Shown here: in pieces, positions 6,525 through 15,612 of the stretch
Layout of the letters: every line of letters begins with the position of its first letter
How positions within the stretch are numbered: position 1 is the stretch's first letter
Source of the DNA: a virus
Taxonomy: Duplodnaviria > Heunggongvirae > Uroviricota > Caudoviricetes
IMG/VR virus record: IMGVR_UViG_3300008107_000053
Direction: 5' to 3' (one strand)
Length of the DNA stretch: 37,497 bases
The notes under the pieces: generated by a model
What the model was told of the DNA's origin: nothing
What the model saw: the letters and a program-made list of their open reading frames with translations, nothing else
The model's database searches: none
Position numbers and translations under genes: made by a program

Positions 6525-7105
6525 AGATAATCTCCTTTTATACAGGTCATTATGAATGGGATGCTGAACAACTAAAGAAATCCATGAACAAACTAGGCAT
6601 CATAAACTATGATGTAGAATATAGAGATGGTGTTGGTAGTTGGGAATCAAACACTCAAATGAAGTGTAACTTTATTTTAGAAAAATTAAAAGAAAACGAC
6701 TCTGTTGTTTGGACTGATGCCGACTCTAGAGTTAGAGAAATACCTTCATTTTTCGACACAATAGAAACTGATGTTGGATTTTATTTTTTACCAGCTGAGT
6801 GTGCTAATGATTTTAAGCTGCCAGATCACTCAATACTAAAATCGCCTATAAGCTATCTACAGTCTGGCACTATGTTTTTCAGAAACACTAAATCTACAAT
6901 AAACCTCTTACATAAATGGAATGAGTTAAACTCTTTAGATAATAGACAGTGGGATCAGTGGACATTACAAGTCGCTCTCGCACAATCAGATGTTACTATA
7001 ACAGAACTTCCAGAAAGTTATGTTTGGGTTGATGGCGTTAATTCTGGTTCACCAGTAATAGAACATTTACAGGCGAGCAGAAAATTTAAGGCTAAAATCC
7101 GCTAA
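6521..7105 (+). CDS. nucleotide-diphospho-sugar glycosyltransferase (GT-A, GT77-like)
   Basis: VVWTDADS (DxD), QSGTMFF, WDQWTLQ motifs. Confidence 0.8.
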   Translation: MKIISFYTGHYEWDAEQLKKSMNKLGIINYDVEYRDGVGSWESNTQMKCNFILEKLKENDSVVWTDADSRVREIPSFFDTIETDVGFYFLPAECANDFKLPDHSILKSPISYLQSGTMFFRNTKSTINLLHKWNELNSLDNRQWDQWTLQVALAQSDVTITELPESYVWVDGVNSGSPVIEHLQASRKFKAKIR

Positions 7106-7108
7106 ATA
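7102..7108 (+). promoter_or_regulatory. putative T4-type late promoter (CTAAATA)
   Basis: Variant of the T4 late consensus TATAAATA, directly upstream of the AAGGAG RBS; gp33 is present in the window. Confidence 0.55.
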
Positions 7109-8147: not shown

Positions 8148-8768
8148 ATGCTAACATCAGAACAATTCCACCACCTATTTCCAAGAAATGGTGATCCAGA
8201 TGGATGGGTAGAATCTATGAATTCCACCTTTCCATTATACGAAATTAACACCCCTCAGAGAATTGCTGCTTTTCTAGCGCAATGCGGTCATGAATCTGGG
8301 GGTTTCACTGTATTTGAAGAAAACCTAAACTATTCTGCTCAGGGATTGTGCAACATCTTTAAGAAGTATTTCCCTACTCTTGACTCTGCACAGCCATATG
8401 CACGTAAGCCAGAGATGATTGCAAATAAGGTTTATGCTAATCGTATGGGTAATGGACCAGAGTCTTCTGGAGATGGTTATAAATATAGAGGTCGCGGACC
8501 AATTCAGCTAACTGGAAAGTCTAACTATACAGCATTTGCAAAAGAAATGTTTGATAATTGGCAAGAAGTCGTTGAAAACCCAGACTGGGTTACATGGGAT
8601 AAAGACTTTGCTCTTATGTCTGCTATTTGGTTCTGGAACAAAACTGGACTAAATAAAGAAGCCGATGCTGGAGACATTAAAACCATGACGCGAAAAATCA
8701 ATGGTGGATTTATTGGTCTAGAAGATCGTATTAAACACTATAACGAAGCCATACACTTATTAACATAA
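8148..8768 (+). CDS. GH19 chitinase-like endolysin
   Basis: AFLAQCGHESG, EENLNY, RGRGPIQLTGKSNY, SAIWFW, TRKINGG. Confidence 0.93.
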   Translation: MLTSEQFHHLFPRNGDPDGWVESMNSTFPLYEINTPQRIAAFLAQCGHESGGFTVFEENLNYSAQGLCNIFKKYFPTLDSAQPYARKPEMIANKVYANRMGNGPESSGDGYKYRGRGPIQLTGKSNYTAFAKEMFDNWQEVVENPDWVTWDKDFALMSAIWFWNKTGLNKEADAGDIKTMTRKINGGFIGLEDRIKHYNEAIHLLT

Positions 8769-8773
8769 TTTAA

Positions 8774-9400
8774 ATGACAATATCTAGCACTAATATTAAT
8801 ATCGATGGTTTAAGAACCGCATTTGGTGGAGGCACTGGTGCAGTCAGCTTGAGTGAATTCTACAGAGGTGGTTTTAGAGTTGAATCGATATCAACAATGA
8901 ACTCTAATATTCCTACTTCTGGTGAAATAGGAATGGGTAGTTTTGCTAATGCTAGATATAAACAGACTGAAAGTTATACTTTAACTGTCGGTTCCTACTC
9001 TGTTTCAGACGGACAAAAATCACCTACTAACTATACTTTTACAGGATTTAATTATACTGGTGGATCACCCGCTCCAATATCAGGACCAACTCCAGGACCT
9101 TTTGGTTCTGTGTCTACTAATCCCCCTACTTTGGGTACTTACTATGGTTCATACTCTCTTGTAACCATAGCAAGAGAAACTTATGGATCTGCAAATTATT
9201 TTTATATAAACTTGTACAATTCAGGATTAGCCGCACCCCCTAATAATGATGCTGTATTCACATATATAACTGCTCCAGGTGTTGGTACATTTTATAGATC
9301 TGCTGCGACATATCGTGTAGATGGGCTCAATGGCATGTGGTATTGGAGTTCTTCTGCATCTATAACCAATGGCACCACTGGCTATGAATTATACAAATAA
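8774..9400 (+). CDS. putative tail-fibre tip/adhesin-like virion protein
   Basis: N-terminal FGGG..VSLSEFYRGG...NIPTSGEI motif seen in small phage fibre-tip proteins; G/S/T/Y-rich beta-like C-terminus. Confidence 0.6.
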   Translation: MTISSTNINIDGLRTAFGGGTGAVSLSEFYRGGFRVESISTMNSNIPTSGEIGMGSFANARYKQTESYTLTVGSYSVSDGQKSPTNYTFTGFNYTGGSPAPISGPTPGPFGSVSTNPPTLGTYYGSYSLVTIARETYGSANYFYINLYNSGLAAPPNNDAVFTYITAPGVGTFYRSAATYRVDGLNGMWYWSSSASITNGTTGYELYK

Positions 9401-9408
9401 GGAATAAC

Positions 9409-9810
9409 ATGATAGCATTCAGCATAAAAATTTTAGAAAATTATGGAGATAAGTCTTTTTTGGTAGAATATAAACCAGCAGACGAATCCTTGACGACACA
9501 CACCAATAGAATATATTTGGATATTGATGCAACTGTGACTAAAGAACAAGTTATAGAAAAACTCAAAGCAGCAGCACCATCTGATTTATGGAAACAGGAA
9601 AGTGCAAATAATTCTATGGATTTATCTCACTTAAACGATCTTAAAGAATCTGTAGTTAATGTAGAGGAAACCCCAGAAGTTATCACTCCTATAGTAACAT
9701 CAAACGAAACTCACATTTCTACACCAGAGCAAATTCGTTTATATCAAGAAGTTCAAATGGAAGCTGCAGTTCAACGTGTTTTAGCTAGATTGGTTGGAGA
9801 AAGAATATGA
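9409..9810 (+). CDS. hypothetical protein, possible fibre assembly chaperone
   Basis: AAGGA RBS; VEY...AP..W pattern; lies directly after the fibre-like gene. Confidence 0.45.
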   Translation: MIAFSIKILENYGDKSFLVEYKPADESLTTHTNRIYLDIDATVTKEQVIEKLKAAAPSDLWKQESANNSMDLSHLNDLKESVVNVEETPEVITPIVTSNETHISTPEQIRLYQEVQMEAAVQRVLARLVGERI

Positions 9811-10319
9811 CTAGTACCCCGTTTGCAATGTTTGGTAGTATCGCTCTTTTGGTTCGTATGCAACCAAGTGAGATCCGTGAAGTTACTCTTGGTGATAATG
9901 GATTAGTTACTAGTGGATTATACTATTACACTGATGGTTGTGCTAAAGTTAAAGTGAAAGAAACTGGTGAAGTTTTACAAGATAGAACACCAGGATGGTT
10001 AAATGCTGAAAATGCAAACTCTGGTGCTTCTACTGGTGGTACACTTGAGCTGACTTTCCCAGTTGAAACTGAATGGTTATGTATCCCACATGAACACAAT
10101 CCTATTGGACTTCCAGATTGCAGCAGTATAATTTTAGCTCCTGGAGAAGTTGCTTCACTGCCTCAAAACGCAAATGTCTTTCTTGTGAGAGGAACTGCTC
10201 AAATTAATGGAAAGAGTTTTATTGGACCATGGCAAATTCGTGTTAGATCTGGAGATGTTGAACTGGAAAACAACTCCAATGAAACTATATACGCTTTAAG
10301 AGTTATTAGCCCTAGATGA
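9807..10319 (+). CDS. cupin-like beta-barrel protein
   Basis: Alternating beta pattern, FLVRGTAQING-type cupin strands; ATGA coupled. Confidence 0.5.
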   Translation: MTSTPFAMFGSIALLVRMQPSEIREVTLGDNGLVTSGLYYYTDGCAKVKVKETGEVLQDRTPGWLNAENANSGASTGGTLELTFPVETEWLCIPHEHNPIGLPDCSSIILAPGEVASLPQNANVFLVRGTAQINGKSFIGPWQIRVRSGDVELENNSNETIYALRVISPR

Positions 10320-11047
10320 AAACCAAGTCTATACATAGATCATTGGGAGCTTGGTTGCTCCCAATCTTTTTTGCATTATCTGTTTATTATGCTACCATTC
10401 CCTGGATTATTGTATCTTTGTTGTTATATTTTTGGATAGCCATAACTATTACTGCTGGTTATCATAGATACTTTACGCATAATATGTATTCTTGTTCTAG
10501 ATTTTGGGAATATGCATATTCAATCACTGGATGTATAAGTATTAACTCATCTCCAGTTGAGTGGTCTTCTGTTCACATTTTACATCACAAGCATTCAGAT
10601 ACAGATAATGATCCGTATGATTCTACATATAGACATTTTTTAAGATTTAAAGATAGGATAGATATAAAGTTATCTAAACATTCATTAAAGATGTTAAGGG
10701 ATCCTCGCCATAAGTTTTTCTTTGAGCATTCCTTTAGTCTAAGTGTAATTTACCTTGTACTTGTTTGTTTATTATTTGGTATCCCTGGTTTGGTTTTTCT
10801 CTATGGATTACCAATTAGTCTTTATCTTGTAACTAGCGGTATACACACAATTACAGCGCATAAAGATAAAACTCCTAGAAATTATTGGTTTTTAGAATTC
10901 GTAATCCCAATGGCTGGAGAGTGGATACATAAAGAACATCATAATGATCCAAGAATTGTTATATTCAATCATAGACCTGAGTTTTTTGATTTGGGTGGTT
11001 TTTTTATAAAGGTGATATCTCGTGCTAAATCAACTGAAAGATCTTGA
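10316..11047 (+). CDS. membrane fatty acid desaturase (delta-9/DesC-like)
   Basis: His boxes HRYFTH, HILHH, HKEHH, plus transmembrane segments. Confidence 0.9.
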   Translation: MKTKSIHRSLGAWLLPIFFALSVYYATIPWIIVSLLLYFWIAITITAGYHRYFTHNMYSCSRFWEYAYSITGCISINSSPVEWSSVHILHHKHSDTDNDPYDSTYRHFLRFKDRIDIKLSKHSLKMLRDPRHKFFFEHSFSLSVIYLVLVCLLFGIPGLVFLYGLPISLYLVTSGIHTITAHKDKTPRNYWFLEFVIPMAGEWIHKEHHNDPRIVIFNHRPEFFDLGGFFIKVISRAKSTERS

Positions 11048-11186
11048 AGAAATTGATAAAGAACACCATGTTTTAGCTGTTTATGATAATGAACCTGAAG
11101 ATTATAACTTAACATTTAGGTTTCCTGAACAAATGATGTATAGCGTAGATCAGTTAAAAGAAATGAACGTTTTTGGTATGTTATGA
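11022..11186 (+). CDS. small acidic peptide, 54 aa (not in ORF track)
   Basis: GTG start with AAGGTG RBS; MLNQLKDLEEIDKEHHVLAVYDNEPEDYNLTFRFPEQMMYSVDQLKEMNVFGML*; ATGA overlap with 11183. Confidence 0.6.
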   Translation: MLNQLKDLEEIDKEHHVLAVYDNEPEDYNLTFRFPEQMMYSVDQLKEMNVFGML

Positions 11187-12136
11187 AGTATTATTATCAT
11201 CAAACCATTGCTCCTTCTATGACTAGCCCAGAAAAAGCAATTTTTATTCTGGATAGATCTAAATCATTATTCACTTTTGATAATTTAGAAATTTTGACTC
11301 CAATTGGAGAATTATGTCAACCAAAATCAATTGATCAACTATGTTATGAGCGAGTTCATGAAATTCTTGACGCTGCACTTGGTAAAAAAATATCTATATT
11401 TTGGAGTGGTGGTATTGATTCTACACTAATTGTATGCGAATTTTTAAAATATTGCCCAACAGATAGAATACGAATAGTTTTAACAGAAAACTCTATAAAA
11501 GAATATCCTGAGTTTTATGCAAAATACATTCACCATAAACTTGAAACTGTAGAGTATAATTTTTATGAAGACTCTGTTATAAACCAGTGTCTAATTGATA
11601 GTGTTATCGTAACAGGACATTTAACTGATCCAATGTTTGGTAGTAACATTTATCACATAATGCCAGAGTTTAGATTGAGACAAACTATTCCAGAGTTTAT
11701 TGCGAATTTAACAGAAGAATCCCAACAATATTACACTAAACTAGCTGCAGCTTGTCCAAGAGAATTAGTAGATGTTAAGGATTTATTCTGGTGGATGAAT
11801 TACACATTAGAGTATCAGGGTGAACAGTTTTGGATTCTGCTTGATACAGAAAACCTTATCATAAATAAAAACGTTTTCCATTTCTGTGACAATAAATCAT
11901 GGAATGATTATGCCATAAGCACTAGCGCAGAAGAAAAATGGTCTGGATATAATTTTGTCGATTATAAGATGTGTTTGAAAAAACAGATACAGGATTTTAC
12001 AAATGATACATATTATACCGAAAACAAAATAAAGGTTGCTTCTTGGAGAAGGTATAGAAAATTGAAAGATAGAATTAAAATGCCTTTATTCATAGATACT
12101 GAATGGAAACGTGGTTGGCGTATTTTTAGAGGATAA
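11183..12136 (+). CDS. asparagine-synthetase C-domain-like adenylating enzyme (PP-loop ATPase) without a glutaminase domain
   Basis: WSGGIDST PP-loop, VTGHLTDPMFG, terminal YKxxLKxxI motif. Confidence 0.75.
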   Translation: MKYYYHQTIAPSMTSPEKAIFILDRSKSLFTFDNLEILTPIGELCQPKSIDQLCYERVHEILDAALGKKISIFWSGGIDSTLIVCEFLKYCPTDRIRIVLTENSIKEYPEFYAKYIHHKLETVEYNFYEDSVINQCLIDSVIVTGHLTDPMFGSNIYHIMPEFRLRQTIPEFIANLTEESQQYYTKLAAACPRELVDVKDLFWWMNYTLEYQGEQFWILLDTENLIINKNVFHFCDNKSWNDYAISTSAEEKWSGYNFVDYKMCLKKQIQDFTNDTYYTENKIKVASWRRYRKLKDRIKMPLFIDTEWKRGWRIFRG

Positions 12137-12139
12137 AAC

Positions 12140-12589
12140 ATGATAACATATCAACAAGAATCTCTTTTTGAGATTTTAGACGAGATGAAAGAAATTATAA
12201 AGTTAAACTATAGAGATTTAACTTTGAATAAAGATAAAGTTCTTCTTGATCCCATTTGGGAAAGATACGAAAACTTAGAATCTACTGGAAACTTTTTCTT
12301 ATTTACTGCTAGAGATGACTTAGCTTTAGTTGGTTATGGAGCATTCTTTTTAAATAACCATATTCATTACAGGGATCTTAATGTAGCCAGCAATGACGTT
12401 CTGTATTTAAAAGAAGAATATAGAAAAGGTATGACTGGAATCAAATTGTTAAAATTCTGCGAGAATAAAATGAAAGAACTGGGTGCTGATAAAATAACTT
12501 GGCATGTTAAAAATTCCATAGATTTCACACCAATTCTTTATAGATTGGGTTACCTTGAAGAAGACAAAATTATAGGTAAATTTCTATGA
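12140..12589 (+). CDS. GNAT-family acetyltransferase
   Basis: LVGY, DVLYLKEEYRKGMTGIKLL acetyl-CoA motif A, YRLGY. Confidence 0.85.
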   Translation: MITYQQESLFEILDEMKEIIKLNYRDLTLNKDKVLLDPIWERYENLESTGNFFLFTARDDLALVGYGAFFLNNHIHYRDLNVASNDVLYLKEEYRKGMTGIKLLKFCENKMKELGADKITWHVKNSIDFTPILYRLGYLEEDKIIGKFL

Positions 12590-13218
12590 GACCAGCTAGC
12601 GACTTTTTTCTAAAATTGAATTTCAATGAAACTCAATTAAATGCTATAGTTCAAATTTATCATAAGTATTTTTATCCACACATGCCTGAGAAATATGCAG
12701 GAACTGGTGTTATTGCTTTATGGAAAACAGGTTCTACATGGGAAACAGGAAAGGGTGCTGATATTGGACATGCTCACAAAGGAATTGTATCTGAGGAGTG
12801 TCAGAATGATCCTTTATGGCAAGAGTTCTCTGATATCTTACCTTTTATGGGGCAATCTGCCACAATAACCAAAATAACACCTGGTGCTGTTATGGTTCCT
12901 CATGTTGATAGAGCTTGGAGACCAAACGCGATTTATTTTCCTATTTCTGGATGTTCTGATAGGTGTATTTCTGAATATTATAATATACCAAAATTACCAA
13001 CTAAAAACAGTCAATCTATTCAAGTTTTTCCAAAAGCAGATTATTCATTTTCTGTCAATGAGAGTGCATATTTAAATAATGTGCATGAGTGGCATAGTGT
13101 TAGAAATACTTCTAATATAGAACGAACCGCATTCGGATGGAATTTTGCTTCCCCTAACTACTCATTTGATTACTGCAAAAATGTATTAACTAAAGCTGGA
13201 TATGTACAATCCGATTAG
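12586..13218 (+). CDS. 2OG-Fe(II)/Asp-Asn beta-hydroxylase-like oxygenase
   Basis: PHVD (HxD)...WHSV...ER facial-triad pattern. Confidence 0.7.
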   Translation: MRPASDFFLKLNFNETQLNAIVQIYHKYFYPHMPEKYAGTGVIALWKTGSTWETGKGADIGHAHKGIVSEECQNDPLWQEFSDILPFMGQSATITKITPGAVMVPHVDRAWRPNAIYFPISGCSDRCISEYYNIPKLPTKNSQSIQVFPKADYSFSVNESAYLNNVHEWHSVRNTSNIERTAFGWNFASPNYSFDYCKNVLTKAGYVQSD

Positions 13219-13810
13219 AACTAATTGGTTTTACAGTTATGTTGATGTTCCAAATTTGGACAGCATAACAACAGAACTTATTAAGTTGTCTGAAGATGTT
13301 GTGCATTTGAAGCGCAGAACTAATCCATTTTATGTTAATGTTTCTGCAGAAGATGGTATAGATGCCTGCCCTACATTAAAATGCTATTTACAAGAATGTG
13401 GTATTCTTACAAAATTGAATAGGTTTCTGTTTTCTTCGAATCAAGTAACATCATCTGTTATCCATGTAGATTCATATGATCCAGCATACACTCAGTGTTC
13501 TTTAAATTTTGCTTTAAAGCACTGTGAAAATTCTTACACTGCATTTTACAAAACAAATTTGACTACATTGATAGATTCAGGTAAAATGGGACTACATGCT
13601 CCTAGTAATTTTGCTTGGACTTATGCGGGCGCTGCTGAAGAAATTGCAAGAGTAGAAGTTATACGACCTATGGTTGTAAATACTACAATATTGCATAGAG
13701 GGATAACAGACAATCCATTTAGAAGCATCTGCGGCTTGAGGTTTATCCCTGAGCTAGATGAAGAAAATTTAAAACAAATGGGAATCAAAAACCCATTTAC
13801 TCAAGAATGA
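13202..13810 (+). CDS. 2OG-Fe(II)-like oxygenase
   Basis: IHVD (HxD), SLNF, PMVVNTTILH...R..LRF. Confidence 0.65.
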   Translation: MYNPIRTNWFYSYVDVPNLDSITTELIKLSEDVVHLKRRTNPFYVNVSAEDGIDACPTLKCYLQECGILTKLNRFLFSSNQVTSSVIHVDSYDPAYTQCSLNFALKHCENSYTAFYKTNLTTLIDSGKMGLHAPSNFAWTYAGAAEEIARVEVIRPMVVNTTILHRGITDNPFRSICGLRFIPELDEENLKQMGIKNPFTQE

Positions 13811-14460
13811 AAACCTTTATACACCATGATCTACCCAAACTTGAACGCACCACTGCACCAGATGGCACACGAGTTTATAAAACACCGTCGGGTAGAGCCT
13901 ATCCATCGGTCACCACCGTTACGTCCCTACATTCAGCAAAAGGAATTGCAGAGTGGCGTCGCAGGGTTGGTAATGAAGAAGCAAACAGGGTATCCGCAAG
14001 GGCATCTGCCAGAGGAACAAGAGTTCACACCCTCTGTGAACATTACCTGCTAGGTAACAATCCTGAGCCAGATATCTTTGACGCAGAGATCTTCAATTCA
14101 ATGAAACTCTGGTTGGATGACATCGATAACATCCACTGCTTAGAAACACCGCTGTACTCTGACTTCTTAGAAGTTGCAGGAACAGTAGATTGCATTGCTG
14201 AGTTTCAAGGTAAGCTATCAGTCATAGATTTCAAGACTGCAAATAAACCCAAAGATCGGGAAGATATATATAATTACTTCATGCAAACAGCTGCATACGC
14301 AGTTGCGTTTGAAGAACGCACAGGCATTCCAATTGGTAGGCTAGTAATTATCATGGGTGTGGAGAACGATGATCCACGACTGTTTATTGAGAAGCGTGAC
14401 AACTGGATCGGTGGATTCAGAAAATTGCGTTTAGACTACAAGAATGCCCATAATATTTGA
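13807..14460 (+). CDS. PD-(D/E)XK exonuclease (T4-like phage family)
   Basis: YPSVTTV, RGTRVH, E..L...VAGTVDC, VIDFKT, YFMQTAAY. Confidence 0.9.
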   Translation: MKTFIHHDLPKLERTTAPDGTRVYKTPSGRAYPSVTTVTSLHSAKGIAEWRRRVGNEEANRVSARASARGTRVHTLCEHYLLGNNPEPDIFDAEIFNSMKLWLDDIDNIHCLETPLYSDFLEVAGTVDCIAEFQGKLSVIDFKTANKPKDREDIYNYFMQTAAYAVAFEERTGIPIGRLVIIMGVENDDPRLFIEKRDNWIGGFRKLRLDYKNAHNI

Positions 14461-14486: not shown

Positions 14487-14696
14487 ATGTTATACATTGA
14501 TTACCATTTTGATCTTTCGGATGGATACATTCTGTTTGACGAAGAATTGCATCTTGCATCACAGGAAAAGAAACCTGACCAAGTTTGGGGAACTTTACCT
14601 AATGGATGGAAAGATGGCGATATGTTTAAATTACAGATCTCTGCAAACGGTAGAGTAATGCTTGTAAAAGCAACTCAACCAAACGGAGGTTTATAA
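14487..14696 (+). CDS. small hypothetical protein
   Basis: 69-aa ORF filling the gap between the exonuclease and the tmRNA. Confidence 0.65.
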   Translation: MLYIDYHFDLSDGYILFDEELHLASQEKKPDQVWGTLPNGWKDGDMFKLQISANGRVMLVKATQPNGGL

Positions 14697-15098
14697 GGAA
14701 TTGTTGTAATCCCTTCAAAGCGAAGGACTTCTGGACGTGGGTTCGACTCCCACCACCTCCACCAATAGGACTTTTATGGAACTTATCAAGTATAGAGATT
14801 CGGGGATGAATACTTATACCTACTTTTGGATAGATAGCAAAAAGCGTTGCATCTCTCCTTACTTTGATAGTTCAACAGATGCCACTGAATGGCTAAAGAG
14901 TTTTACTGATGGGGGTGCCTTGGTTTCGACAGAGGTAGATAGTAGAGACGGCAACACGGGAATGTGAAACCCGTAGGATTGGGGAAACTCGGTCGAAGAA
15001 GCAAAACAAAGTAAATGCAAACGACTCTGTCTACGCATTAGCAGCCTAAACGCTGCTTAGGGTTTCGGTTGGTTTCCTCGTAACAGAATAACCAACCA
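14697..15098 (+). ncRNA. ssrA: circularly permuted (two-piece) tmRNA: acceptor piece about 14697-14764, coding piece 14911 to about 15098
   Basis: T-arm GTGGG-TTCGACT-CCCAC and CACCTCC-A-CCA precede GGGGGTG...TTCGAC; the acceptor stem has a G3:U pair; tag ANDSVYALAA* at 15017-15049; AGAGGT/ACTTCT helix joins the two pieces. Confidence 0.92.
14776..14967 (+). CDS. 63-aa ORF starting in the tmRNA intervening segment
   Basis: AGGA RBS 5 nt before the ATG; reads through into the tmRNA 5' end. Confidence 0.55.
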   Translation: MELIKYRDSGMNTYTYFWIDSKKRCISPYFDSSTDATEWLKSFTDGGALVSTEVDSRDGNTGM

Positions 15099-15114
15099 CT
15101 AATAAGGAAGCTAG

Positions 15115-15612
15115 ATGTTAGGTATTGTTTTAGGTAATGGTCCAAGCAAAGCTGCTTACAATCGTTCTGGTGATATCATTATCGGTTGTAACTTTCCAGG
15201 TGACCAGTTTAGTGTTGATGCTACTGTAGTATGTGATGAAGAGATTGTTTATATTTTAAAGAACAATCCAGAAGCCATAACATGCCCAATGATTATTAGC
15301 ACTAAAGTTTTTTCGAAGATGAAAGAATACAAAATTGAAGACAAGTATACCATCTTAGCTGTTTTCAAACCACAGGATTGGTTTAATGCTGCTCACTATG
15401 CAGCAAATTATCTTCTAAGTATCGGTTGTACTCAGATAGATATATGGGGATGTGATTCTATTTTTGTAGATACTACAGAATCAACCACAGACGTTCTTGT
15501 ACCTAAAGAAGACAAGAATGATATGAGGTTTATCCGAAATTGGAGAAAAGTTTGGAATGAAATTTTTGACGATAATCCAATGACACCGTTCAATGTAATG
15601 AAATACCAATAG
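15115..15612 (+). CDS. GNGPS-motif protein (GT29/CstII/MAF_flag10-like nucleotide-sugar-utilising fold)
   Basis: VLGNGPS, GCN, IDIWGCD motifs. Confidence 0.6.
   Translation: MLGIVLGNGPSKAAYNRSGDIIIGCNFPGDQFSVDATVVCDEEIVYILKNNPEAITCPMIISTKVFSKMKEYKIEDKYTILAVFKPQDWFNAAHYAANYLLSIGCTQIDIWGCDSIFVDTTESTTDVLVPKEDKNDMRFIRNWRKVWNEIFDDNPMTPFNVMKYQ

Follow-up and report, generated by a model that had tools for sequence, protein, structure and literature searches.

In a 37,497-nt stretch of viral DNA (IMG/VR record IMGVR_UViG_3300008107_000053, Caudoviricetes), hereafter called the window, a row of nine genes was found that is, on good support, a co-inherited accessory block of aquatic T4-like phages. 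This block, to which we refer as the module, encodes a predicted adhesin-family protein (A) and a small acidic protein (B), followed by a putative bicupin (C), a predicted membrane desaturase (D), a mini-protein (E), a candidate AsnB-type synthetase domain (F), a small GNAT acetyltransferase (G) and two oxygenase-like proteins (H and I). An earlier note on this DNA, made from the sequence alone, had proposed these genes as a mobile, late-expressed set of tailoring enzymes. As to function, we tentatively favour a late-expressed enzymatic maturation of the adhesin-family protein, to which we give somewhat less than an even chance. Phage host range is usually explained by the sequence of the receptor-binding protein alone; the module would add a layer of enzymatic modification, of either the adhesin or the receptor, to the way in which phages of very abundant freshwater and marine bacteria recognise their hosts.

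The gene order X (A-like), Y (B-like), C, D, [E, F], G and oxygenases, in which X and Y denote the first two positions, is kept in about 33 further metagenomic phage contigs. All F orthologues of at least 44 % identity with enough flanking sequence show C-D-(E)-F-G, and most of these loci also carry A-like and B-like genes on the 5' side and H/I-type genes on the 3' side. Starting independently from C, a second scan retrieved the same contigs and four more, belonging to two phage types (L193/L194 and L195/L196; L numbers designate loci), in which the arrangement is X-Y-C-D-G-I(-D-H), without E and F. The E-F pair is the only separable sub-unit of the module, and the genes do not assort independently in either the F-anchored or the C-anchored scan. 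The module was found in at least three genomic contexts, in agreement with the mobility proposed for it: it lies between PhoH/GH19 endolysin and exonuclease genes in the window, L003 and L011, after nrdB, glutaredoxin and CHAP genes in L006, L013, L016-L022, L025, L029 and L033, and elsewhere again in L028, L030, L194 and L195. Optional inserts comprise a second GNAT, a P-loop kinase, a TctC-like protein, a 385-aa protein (cluster c40) and a radical-SAM/SPASM enzyme, and the number of H/I-type paralogs per module ranges from 1 to 6 in the relatives.

All versions have X in common, irrespective of the enzymes that accompany it. The kind of ligase is exchangeable, with an AsnB-type F in most phages and an ATP-grasp ligase in L198. 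In L012 a Peptidase_S74 (S74) fibre gene is followed by a 2-oxoglutarate (2OG) oxygenase, a GP38-type X, a B-like protein and an F homologue, and in L200 the order is S74 fibre, X and 2OG oxygenase. The locus with the ATP-grasp ligase (L198:6001-10934, T4-like, near PhoH) starts with a GP38-type X, and the ligase is followed by a TctC-like binding protein and a 382-aa c40 protein; a TctC-like protein and c40 also adjoin F in L027 and L002.

The window comes from an uncultured freshwater T4-like myophage and encodes gp32, gp59, a DNA end protector, a tail tube protein, a gp5-like spike, and baseplate hub and wedge proteins. Its baseplate wedge protein shares 37-38 % identity with those of Pelagibacter phages Mosig and HTVC008M and Methylophilales phage Melnitz, and the nearest relatives of the window are uncultured metagenome contigs. 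All nine open reading frames proposed for the module are present in a tight row on the + strand, with PhoH and a GH19 endolysin on the 5' side and a PD-(D/E)XK exonuclease on the 3' side (Table 1). Overlaps of 4 nt, of the ATGA type, occur at five junctions (B/C, C/D, E/F, G/H and I/exonuclease) and longer ones at two (D/E, 26 nt; H/I, 17 nt), the other gaps measuring 3-8 nt. The genes are probably co-transcribed; the earlier description of an adhesin gene fused into an operon is best taken to mean co-inheritance and probable co-transcription. The block is also AT-richer than its surroundings, as had been noticed before (GC 0.30-0.34 over 10.5-13 kb versus 0.37-0.42 in the flanks).

Table 1. 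Genes of the module and neighbouring features in the window
Feature	Position	Strand	Description
CTAAATA	7102..7108	+	late-promoter-like motif, 18 nt before the ATG of an 82-aa gene
PhoH gene	upstream of module		flank
GH19 endolysin	8148-8768		upstream flank
A (position X)	8774-9400	+	208 aa; predicted gp38-type adhesin-associated family
B (position Y)	9409-9810	+	133 aa; small acidic protein
C	9807-10319	+	170 aa; compact bicupin (model), no conserved His
D	10316-11047	+	243 aa; predicted truncated membrane di-iron desaturase, stearoyl-CoA (Delta-9) type
E	11022-11186	+	54 aa, pI 4.3; mini-protein; gene overlaps D (3' end) and F (5' end)
F	11183-12136	+	317 aa; predicted stand-alone AsnB-type (PP-loop) synthetase domain
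G	12140-12589	+	149 aa; small GNAT acetyltransferase
H	12586-13218	+	210 aa; predicted Asp/Asn β-hydroxylase-like cupin oxygenase
I	13202-13810	+	202 aa; second HxD...H oxygenase-like protein
PD-(D/E)XK exonuclease	13807-14460		downstream flank

A is composed of a conserved N-terminal motif of about 70 aa (..SLSEFYRGG..IPTSG..) and a variable C-terminal part rich in Gly, Ser, Thr and Tyr (G 13.5, S 13, T 12.5 and Y 9 % of the protein). Its N-terminal ~70 residues are homologous to the N-terminus of a PF05268 (GP38) protein in L012 (hhalign probability 97 %). A profile of the motif matched at least 945 protein clusters of 146-478 aa and so recovered long proteins with the N-terminus of A, of which a single-sequence search had found none; among 120 motif-bearing clusters listed, about 20 carry PF05268, and some others have β-propeller or fn3 domains. 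Three members of the motif family were located by exact sequence (L198, L199 and L200). In L199 and L200 the motif-bearing gene directly follows a Peptidase_S74 tail-fibre gene, which is the gp37-gp38 arrangement, and the L199 protein carries PF05268. The label adhesin-like, which A had received before, is therefore backed by domain architecture, namely the N-terminus common to PF05268 proteins and the position after S74 fibres, and by this architecture A is predicted to be an adhesin-family protein. A comparison of the A family with the GP38-like cluster c7 (hhalign) gave no match, and A matched no PHROG.

Among about 200 loci the X motif is restricted to position X and one further open reading frame 3' of the L193/L194 module. 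The proteins at position X are A-like with 186-244 aa, belong to a cluster of 285-291 aa or measure 384-406 aa, and most of them show this N-terminal motif. B always follows X; in the alignment its N-terminal domain and its C-terminal helix are conserved, and the linker that joins them varies. It is related to cluster c44 (hhalign 91 %, E 1e-6), position Y being occupied by either B or c44, and the c44 member in L012 stands between the GP38-type X and the F homologue. B may be a chaperone, as suggested before, or an adaptor.

A late-type promoter motif is predicted upstream of the module and conserved there. CTAAATA, the late-promoter consensus of the T4-like phage Aeh1 (PMC1524935), precedes the 82-aa gene that heads the run of PhoH, endolysin and module; at the same position before this gene L011 has CTAAATA and L003 the canonical T4 late promoter TATAAATA. 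In each of the 7 distinct lineage-2 loci CTAAATA precedes the A-like gene itself by about 22-35 nt, within spacers that have otherwise diverged. Of the putative late promoter assigned earlier to position 7102, the motif and its conserved position stand, but CTAAATA is not enriched over the whole window (6 found versus 10.4 expected). The statement that the module has no visible terminator needs a similar qualification: a terminator-like hairpin is present at 10342-10365 (+), 26 nt inside D, with a 9-bp stem of which 5 pairs are GC, followed by CTTTTTTG, but such sites are not more numerous than in shuffled sequences (8 versus 5.5 ± 2.1).

F was already recognised as an Asn-synthetase-like ATPase, and both its PP-loop and its fold agree with this. 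The PP-loop SGGIDS (residues 75-80) is invariant in 26 sequences, as are D24, R25, S104, E107, K262, Y278 and K282, and the F profile matches the PP-loops of LarE, GMP synthase and AsnB. The AlphaFold2 (AF2) model of F (predicted local distance difference test, pLDDT, 91.6) has as top fold matches (Foldseek, VIA-align) TsnB9, β-lactam synthetase, AsnB, human ASNS and carbapenam synthetase (CarA); the matches to this AsnB clade reach Z 12.5-13.7 over 210-243 aligned residues (VIA-align), against Z of at most 10.8 over about 140 residues for the other PP-loop enzymes GMP synthase, NAD synthetase and LarE. QueC, TilS, TtuA and LarE, considered as identities of F, were rejected, ranking below the AsnB clade by fold. 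An N-terminal glutaminase (Ntn) domain is absent from F, the model aligning from residue ~130-190 of the 490-576-aa enzymes onward, and F is for this reason, judged by its model, the predicted synthetase half only and not a full asparagine synthetase. Its score against Pfam Asn_synthase PF00733 is 11.6 bits, below the cut-off of 21.

E, noted before as a 54-aa peptide, is a real gene, kept in position and sequence across 15 loci as an acidic protein of 54-69 aa with N3, L8 and D12 invariant; conservation extends over the entire protein, which has the look of a small folded subunit. A complex model supports E as a predicted binding partner of F, with ipSAE 0.87 in each of three runs and 0.01 for the best of 3 controls (the ipSAE mark used is reached by 58 of 80 solved complexes and by 2 of 110 mismatched pairs). 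The runs have at least 72 % of contacts in common, at a partner pLDDT of 62. In the model the interface is formed by E residues 1-35, of which 29-33 contact F 11-16, and it touches F 106-110 and 277-292, segments that carry invariant residues. E was also considered as a sulfur carrier of the ThiS/TtuB type and rejected, as it has no C-terminal Gly-Gly.

Beyond the module, an IMG/VR scan with the F alignment yielded at least 547 relatives, and a further 92 are found in bacterial genomes. F homologues below 35 % identity occur without D, G, H and I. Such distant homologues adjoin a Cupin_2 protein in 67 loci and PF05268 GP38-family proteins in 20 viral loci, and in Xanthomonas, Undibacterium and Comamonas some follow Baseplate_J and a tail-fibre-like gene within prophage-like regions; cluster c25 (Pfam Baseplate_J) is present in 11 of the collected loci. 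The small proteins that adjoin F in other lineages show no detectable homology to one another by hhalign, and none is claimed. Two further arrangements were observed: in a viral contig (L079:2494-8951) four paralogs of the F family form a near-tandem array interrupted by a Cupin_2 gene, and in Bacteroidota a trio of a Cupin_2 protein, a 127-164-aa protein and an F-family PP-loop ligase recurs (L095:6874-8921, L102:5066-7147, L136:1826-4085); NCBIfam has no model for any protein of this trio.

C lies directly upstream of D in every locus found. Its AF2 model (pLDDT 94.3) consists of two small barrels in 170 residues, with fold matches by VIA-align to pirin YhhW (Z 9.9), ChrR (9.4), BacB (9.1) and a Cupin_2 bicupin (8.7). 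The invariant residues in 19 sequences include R60, E68, C92, N98, R145 and R147, and no His is invariant or nearly so among them; C may therefore be a non-metal cupin. The cupin call made for C thus stands for the compact bicupin fold but not for a conserved His metal site. The Cupin_2 cluster c1, which accompanies the distant F homologues, showed no link to C by hhalign, and homology is not claimed.

D, identified earlier as a His-box desaturase, is undoubtedly of the SCD1-like membrane acyl-chain desaturase type by its sequence, from which its activity is predicted. The D family profile matches SCD1 (4ymk) at E 1.8e-11, with residues 24-231 aligned to 67-298. Four His boxes are present, HRYFTH (50), HILHH (87), HTITAH (177) and HKEHH (205), in which H50, H55, H87, H90, H91, H182, H205, H208 and H209 are invariant and H177 nearly so (16 sequences), and the hydrophobic regions 10-50 and 134-176 would provide about 4 transmembrane segments. 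The single sequence scores 22.5 bits against Pfam FA_desaturase, under the cut-off of 29.7. Its best cultured relative is in Pelagibacter phage Mosig (25 % identity), and tblastn gave no cyanophage match. A second, more canonical FA_desaturase gene was seen a few kb 3' of the lineage-2 module (L013:13886-14590, L017:15110-15829, L033:15134-15841).

The GNAT assignment of G was borne out by a PF00583 match of 31.3 bits (cut-off 20.7). G further matches phrog_1249 (E 1.8e-14), is 45-61 % identical across 15 loci and gave no match to the long-chain N-acyltransferase family. It is more like a small acetyltransferase than a long-chain acyltransferase; an OlsB-type long-chain N-acyltransferase was considered and rejected, the match being to PF00583 and the protein only 149 aa long. 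In H and I, previously described as two HxD...H proteins, the motifs are invariant: H106-V-D108...H170 and R180 in H, H88-V-D90...H165 and R174/R180 in I. The Atlas model of H compares with PF05118 clusters at template-modelling (TM) scores of 0.59-0.60, in the absence of a Pfam or PDB profile match, and I is tied to PF05118 only through a chain of paralogs (hhalign: H-c10 92 %, I-c8 90 %, c8-c10 81 %). For both proteins no Pfam or PHROG match was obtained, and PDB profile searches found nothing useful.

The constant presence of X, the swappable ligase, the 1-6 oxygenases, the SPASM genes and the late-type motif together suggest that the enzymes act either on X or on the binding target of X. 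Under the first of these possibilities, which we tentatively prefer, the module would be transcribed late and its enzymes would chemically mature X, destined for the virion. The oxygenases could hydroxylate X and G could acetylate it; F, held by E or acting through it, would amidate or cross-link carboxylates, and the membrane-bound C-D pair might add or edit a lipid-like group. The 70-residue N-terminus of X, together with Y, might serve as the handle that the conserved enzymes recognise, and the variable C-terminal part would evolve along with the host receptor. An oxygenase number that varies from 1 to 6 would fit a variable protein substrate. A more specific version, a maturation pathway like those of ribosomally synthesized and post-translationally modified peptides (RiPPs), in which the X handle and its partner recruit the enzymes (in other phages with an ATP-grasp enzyme as the amide-forming ligase in place of the AsnB type) and the particle bears a chemically edited, possibly lipid-bearing adhesin, we regard as somewhat unlikely.

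Several points weigh against maturation of X. The evidence for it comes from gene neighbourhood and predicted folds. A has no Pfam match of its own (E up to 1) and so no detectable GP38 domain, and in the window the module lies more than 10 kb from the baseplate genes and outside the tail-fibre cluster, amid PhoH, endolysin and exonuclease. Bacteroidota (Aquimarina, Tenacibaculum, Lewinella) also encode the trio of cupin, small protein and F, on their chromosomes and without obvious phage genes nearby. Moreover, D as a membrane acyl-chain desaturase fits poorly with a soluble fibre protein, and lipid substrates are well known for PF05118 enzymes and SCD-type desaturases.

These last points lead to the main rival, remodelling of the host envelope or receptor, which we consider somewhat unlikely and in which the enzymes would act on host lipids or lipopolysaccharide (LPS): D would desaturate and H and I hydroxylate acyl chains in the way of LpxO and OlsC, G would acetylate and F amidate surface carboxylates. 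The lipid A hydroxylase LpxO and the ornithine-lipid hydroxylase OlsC belong to PF05118, the family that H resembles, and the match of D to SCD1 comes with a complete set of di-iron ligands. Such chemistry could tune the membrane during infection or mask the receptor of the neighbouring adhesin. Masking would explain why the enzymes travel with an adhesin gene; genes that block or modify a receptor often adjoin those of receptor-binding proteins, for example llp next to oad in T5 or O-antigen modification genes near tailspikes. The distance of the module from the tail genes in the window is likewise in line with remodelling, as is the action of cyanophage Delta-9 desaturases on C16 acyl chains (PMC5776448), and LPS-type genes beside the tail fibres of pelagimyophages have been read as host-surface modification (PMC7029224). 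However, the module contains no genes for lipid or sugar-nucleotide synthesis, G is an acetyltransferase of the PF00583 type and not an OlsB-type acyltransferase, and a late-type promoter is a poor fit to superinfection exclusion. Remodelling also leaves the modelled E-F complex, the strictly conserved N-terminus of X and the Y protein without a role.

A pathway built on E itself is improbable in our view. E would be the scaffold or precursor, adenylated by F at D12/E9 or at its C-terminus and then tailored by G, H, I and D, and the product, RiPP-like or a scaffold-built metabolite, would be released at lysis. The modelled E-F complex, in which the conserved 35 N-terminal residues of E are bound and the C-terminal third is free, would suit such a role, and so would the invariant acidic motif of E (LExEDK), the place of F in the clade of TsnB9, β-lactam and carbapenam synthetases, the radical-SAM/SPASM enzyme and second GNAT that join the module in some phages, and the small open reading frame directly upstream of F in many lineages. 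The small proteins beside F in those other lineages are, however, not detectably homologous, and E, conserved over its whole length, resembles a small folded subunit. E-F is missing from otherwise complete modules (L193-L196), and E is therefore not a general substrate. Scans with Pfam, PHROG and NCBIfam found no protease, exporter or PqqD-like/RiPP recognition element in the module.

Equally little weight is given to the absence of any common target, that is, a hot spot of unrelated auxiliary genes co-inherited through linkage only. The plastic regions of aquatic T4-like phages, full of 2OG oxygenases and auxiliary genes (PMC7029224), the AT-richness relative to the core genome and the optional insertions (P-loop kinase, TctC-like protein, c40, radical-SAM enzyme) would fit such a hot spot. 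Against it, the same genes persist in the same order although the proteins are only 45-60 % identical, and they do so in at least three unrelated contexts with differing flanks; translational coupling through overlaps is maintained, and sub-sets recombine in a patterned way around X.

The closest described parallel is the host recognition cluster (HRC) of pelagimyophages and cyanomyophages, in which tail-fibre genes are packed with tailoring enzymes (Zaragoza-Solas et al. 2020, PMC7029224); Asp/Asn β-hydroxylases are core to pelagimyophages, and a stearoyl-CoA desaturase occurs in their freshwater group (PMC7029224). Like the HRC, the module brings fibre or adhesin genes of aquatic T4-like phages together with seemingly unrelated tailoring enzymes. 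The HRC is, however, a 30-45 kb non-syntenic island, rich in glycosyltransferases and located between VrlC and gp14 in the structural region (PMC7029224), whereas the module is a 5-kb syntenic block of fixed order, without glycosyltransferase, near PhoH/endolysin or nrdB/CHAP. With gp38 of the T2/T6/S16 type the module has in common the N-terminal motif of PF05268 proteins and, in L199 and L200, the place of the motif gene after an S74 fibre; unlike gp38, A is without detectable PF05268 and its gene in the window is not beside a fibre gene. To our knowledge no tailoring enzymes accompany gp38 of the T-even coliphages.

For the single enzymes similar comparisons can be made. Lasso-peptide cyclases are among the AsnB-family enzymes that form amides or lactams, but the module differs from lasso systems in having neither a B-type protease nor a RiPP recognition element and in that E-F is dispensable in some modules. 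F has the PP-loop SGGxDS and the same synthetase-domain fold as AsnB, β-lactam synthetase, carbapenam synthetase and TsnB9; in contrast to AsnB-family enzymes it lacks a glutaminase-type domain, shares 10-16 % identity with them and has a dedicated 54-aa partner. H and I recall LpxO, OlsC and AspH (PF05118) by a predicted cupin oxygenase fold with an HxD...H iron site (TM ~0.6 for the H model), yet both are short and soluble, with up to six paralogs per module. Delta-9 desaturases encoded by phages are known as genes of membrane fluidity, and the viral fatty acid desaturases (vFADs) of cyanophages are Delta-9 lipid desaturases that desaturate C16 chains (Roitman et al. 2017, PMC5776448). D resembles them as a phage-encoded membrane desaturase of predicted Delta-9 type, but it is shorter (243 aa), very divergent and always paired with the bicupin C within a larger module.

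The fixed module, the E-F pair, the X motif and the pairing of bicupin with desaturase are described in neither PMC7029224 nor PMC5776448, and PMC5776448 mentions no comparable neighbours of the vFADs; a literature search on AsnB-like/PP-loop proteins with cupin and tail fibre found no paper. The module places four orphan families, all common in viromes, in a context, namely the ligase F, its partner E, a bicupin that always precedes a mini SCD-type desaturase, and the 70-residue X motif; it is small (5 kb), has a fixed order and encodes soluble proteins except for D. Pfam and PHROGs returned nothing for A, B, C, E, H and I, and NCBIfam, applied to A-D and G-I, gave sub-threshold matches for D and G only. 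PADLOC found nothing either, so the module is not linked to known defence systems. The whole block had no match in a DNA search of 50,697 phage records, nor had F, A and a 568-aa F homologue in tblastn against the same records, so that no cultured phage with the module is at hand. A prophage F homologue matched one Pseudomonas phage gene, annotated as MnmA.

In phage Mosig (L001, MT647606.1 51681-68334) a larger block beside the tail-fibre genes contains the FA_desaturase-domain protein that is 25 % identical to D, together with two Asp_Arg_Hydrox proteins, an aminotransferase, an FMN reductase, a peroxiredoxin, a TauD-like dioxygenase, a methylase, a GNAT and several radical-SAM proteins. This block may be the nearest experimentally tractable analogue of the module. 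Just 3' of the exonuclease gene of the window, ARAGORN called a permuted, two-piece transfer-messenger RNA (tmRNA) at 14672-15140 (+) with the tag peptide ANDSVYALAA; a two-piece tmRNA has also been reported for the related phage Melnitz (PMC9004378).

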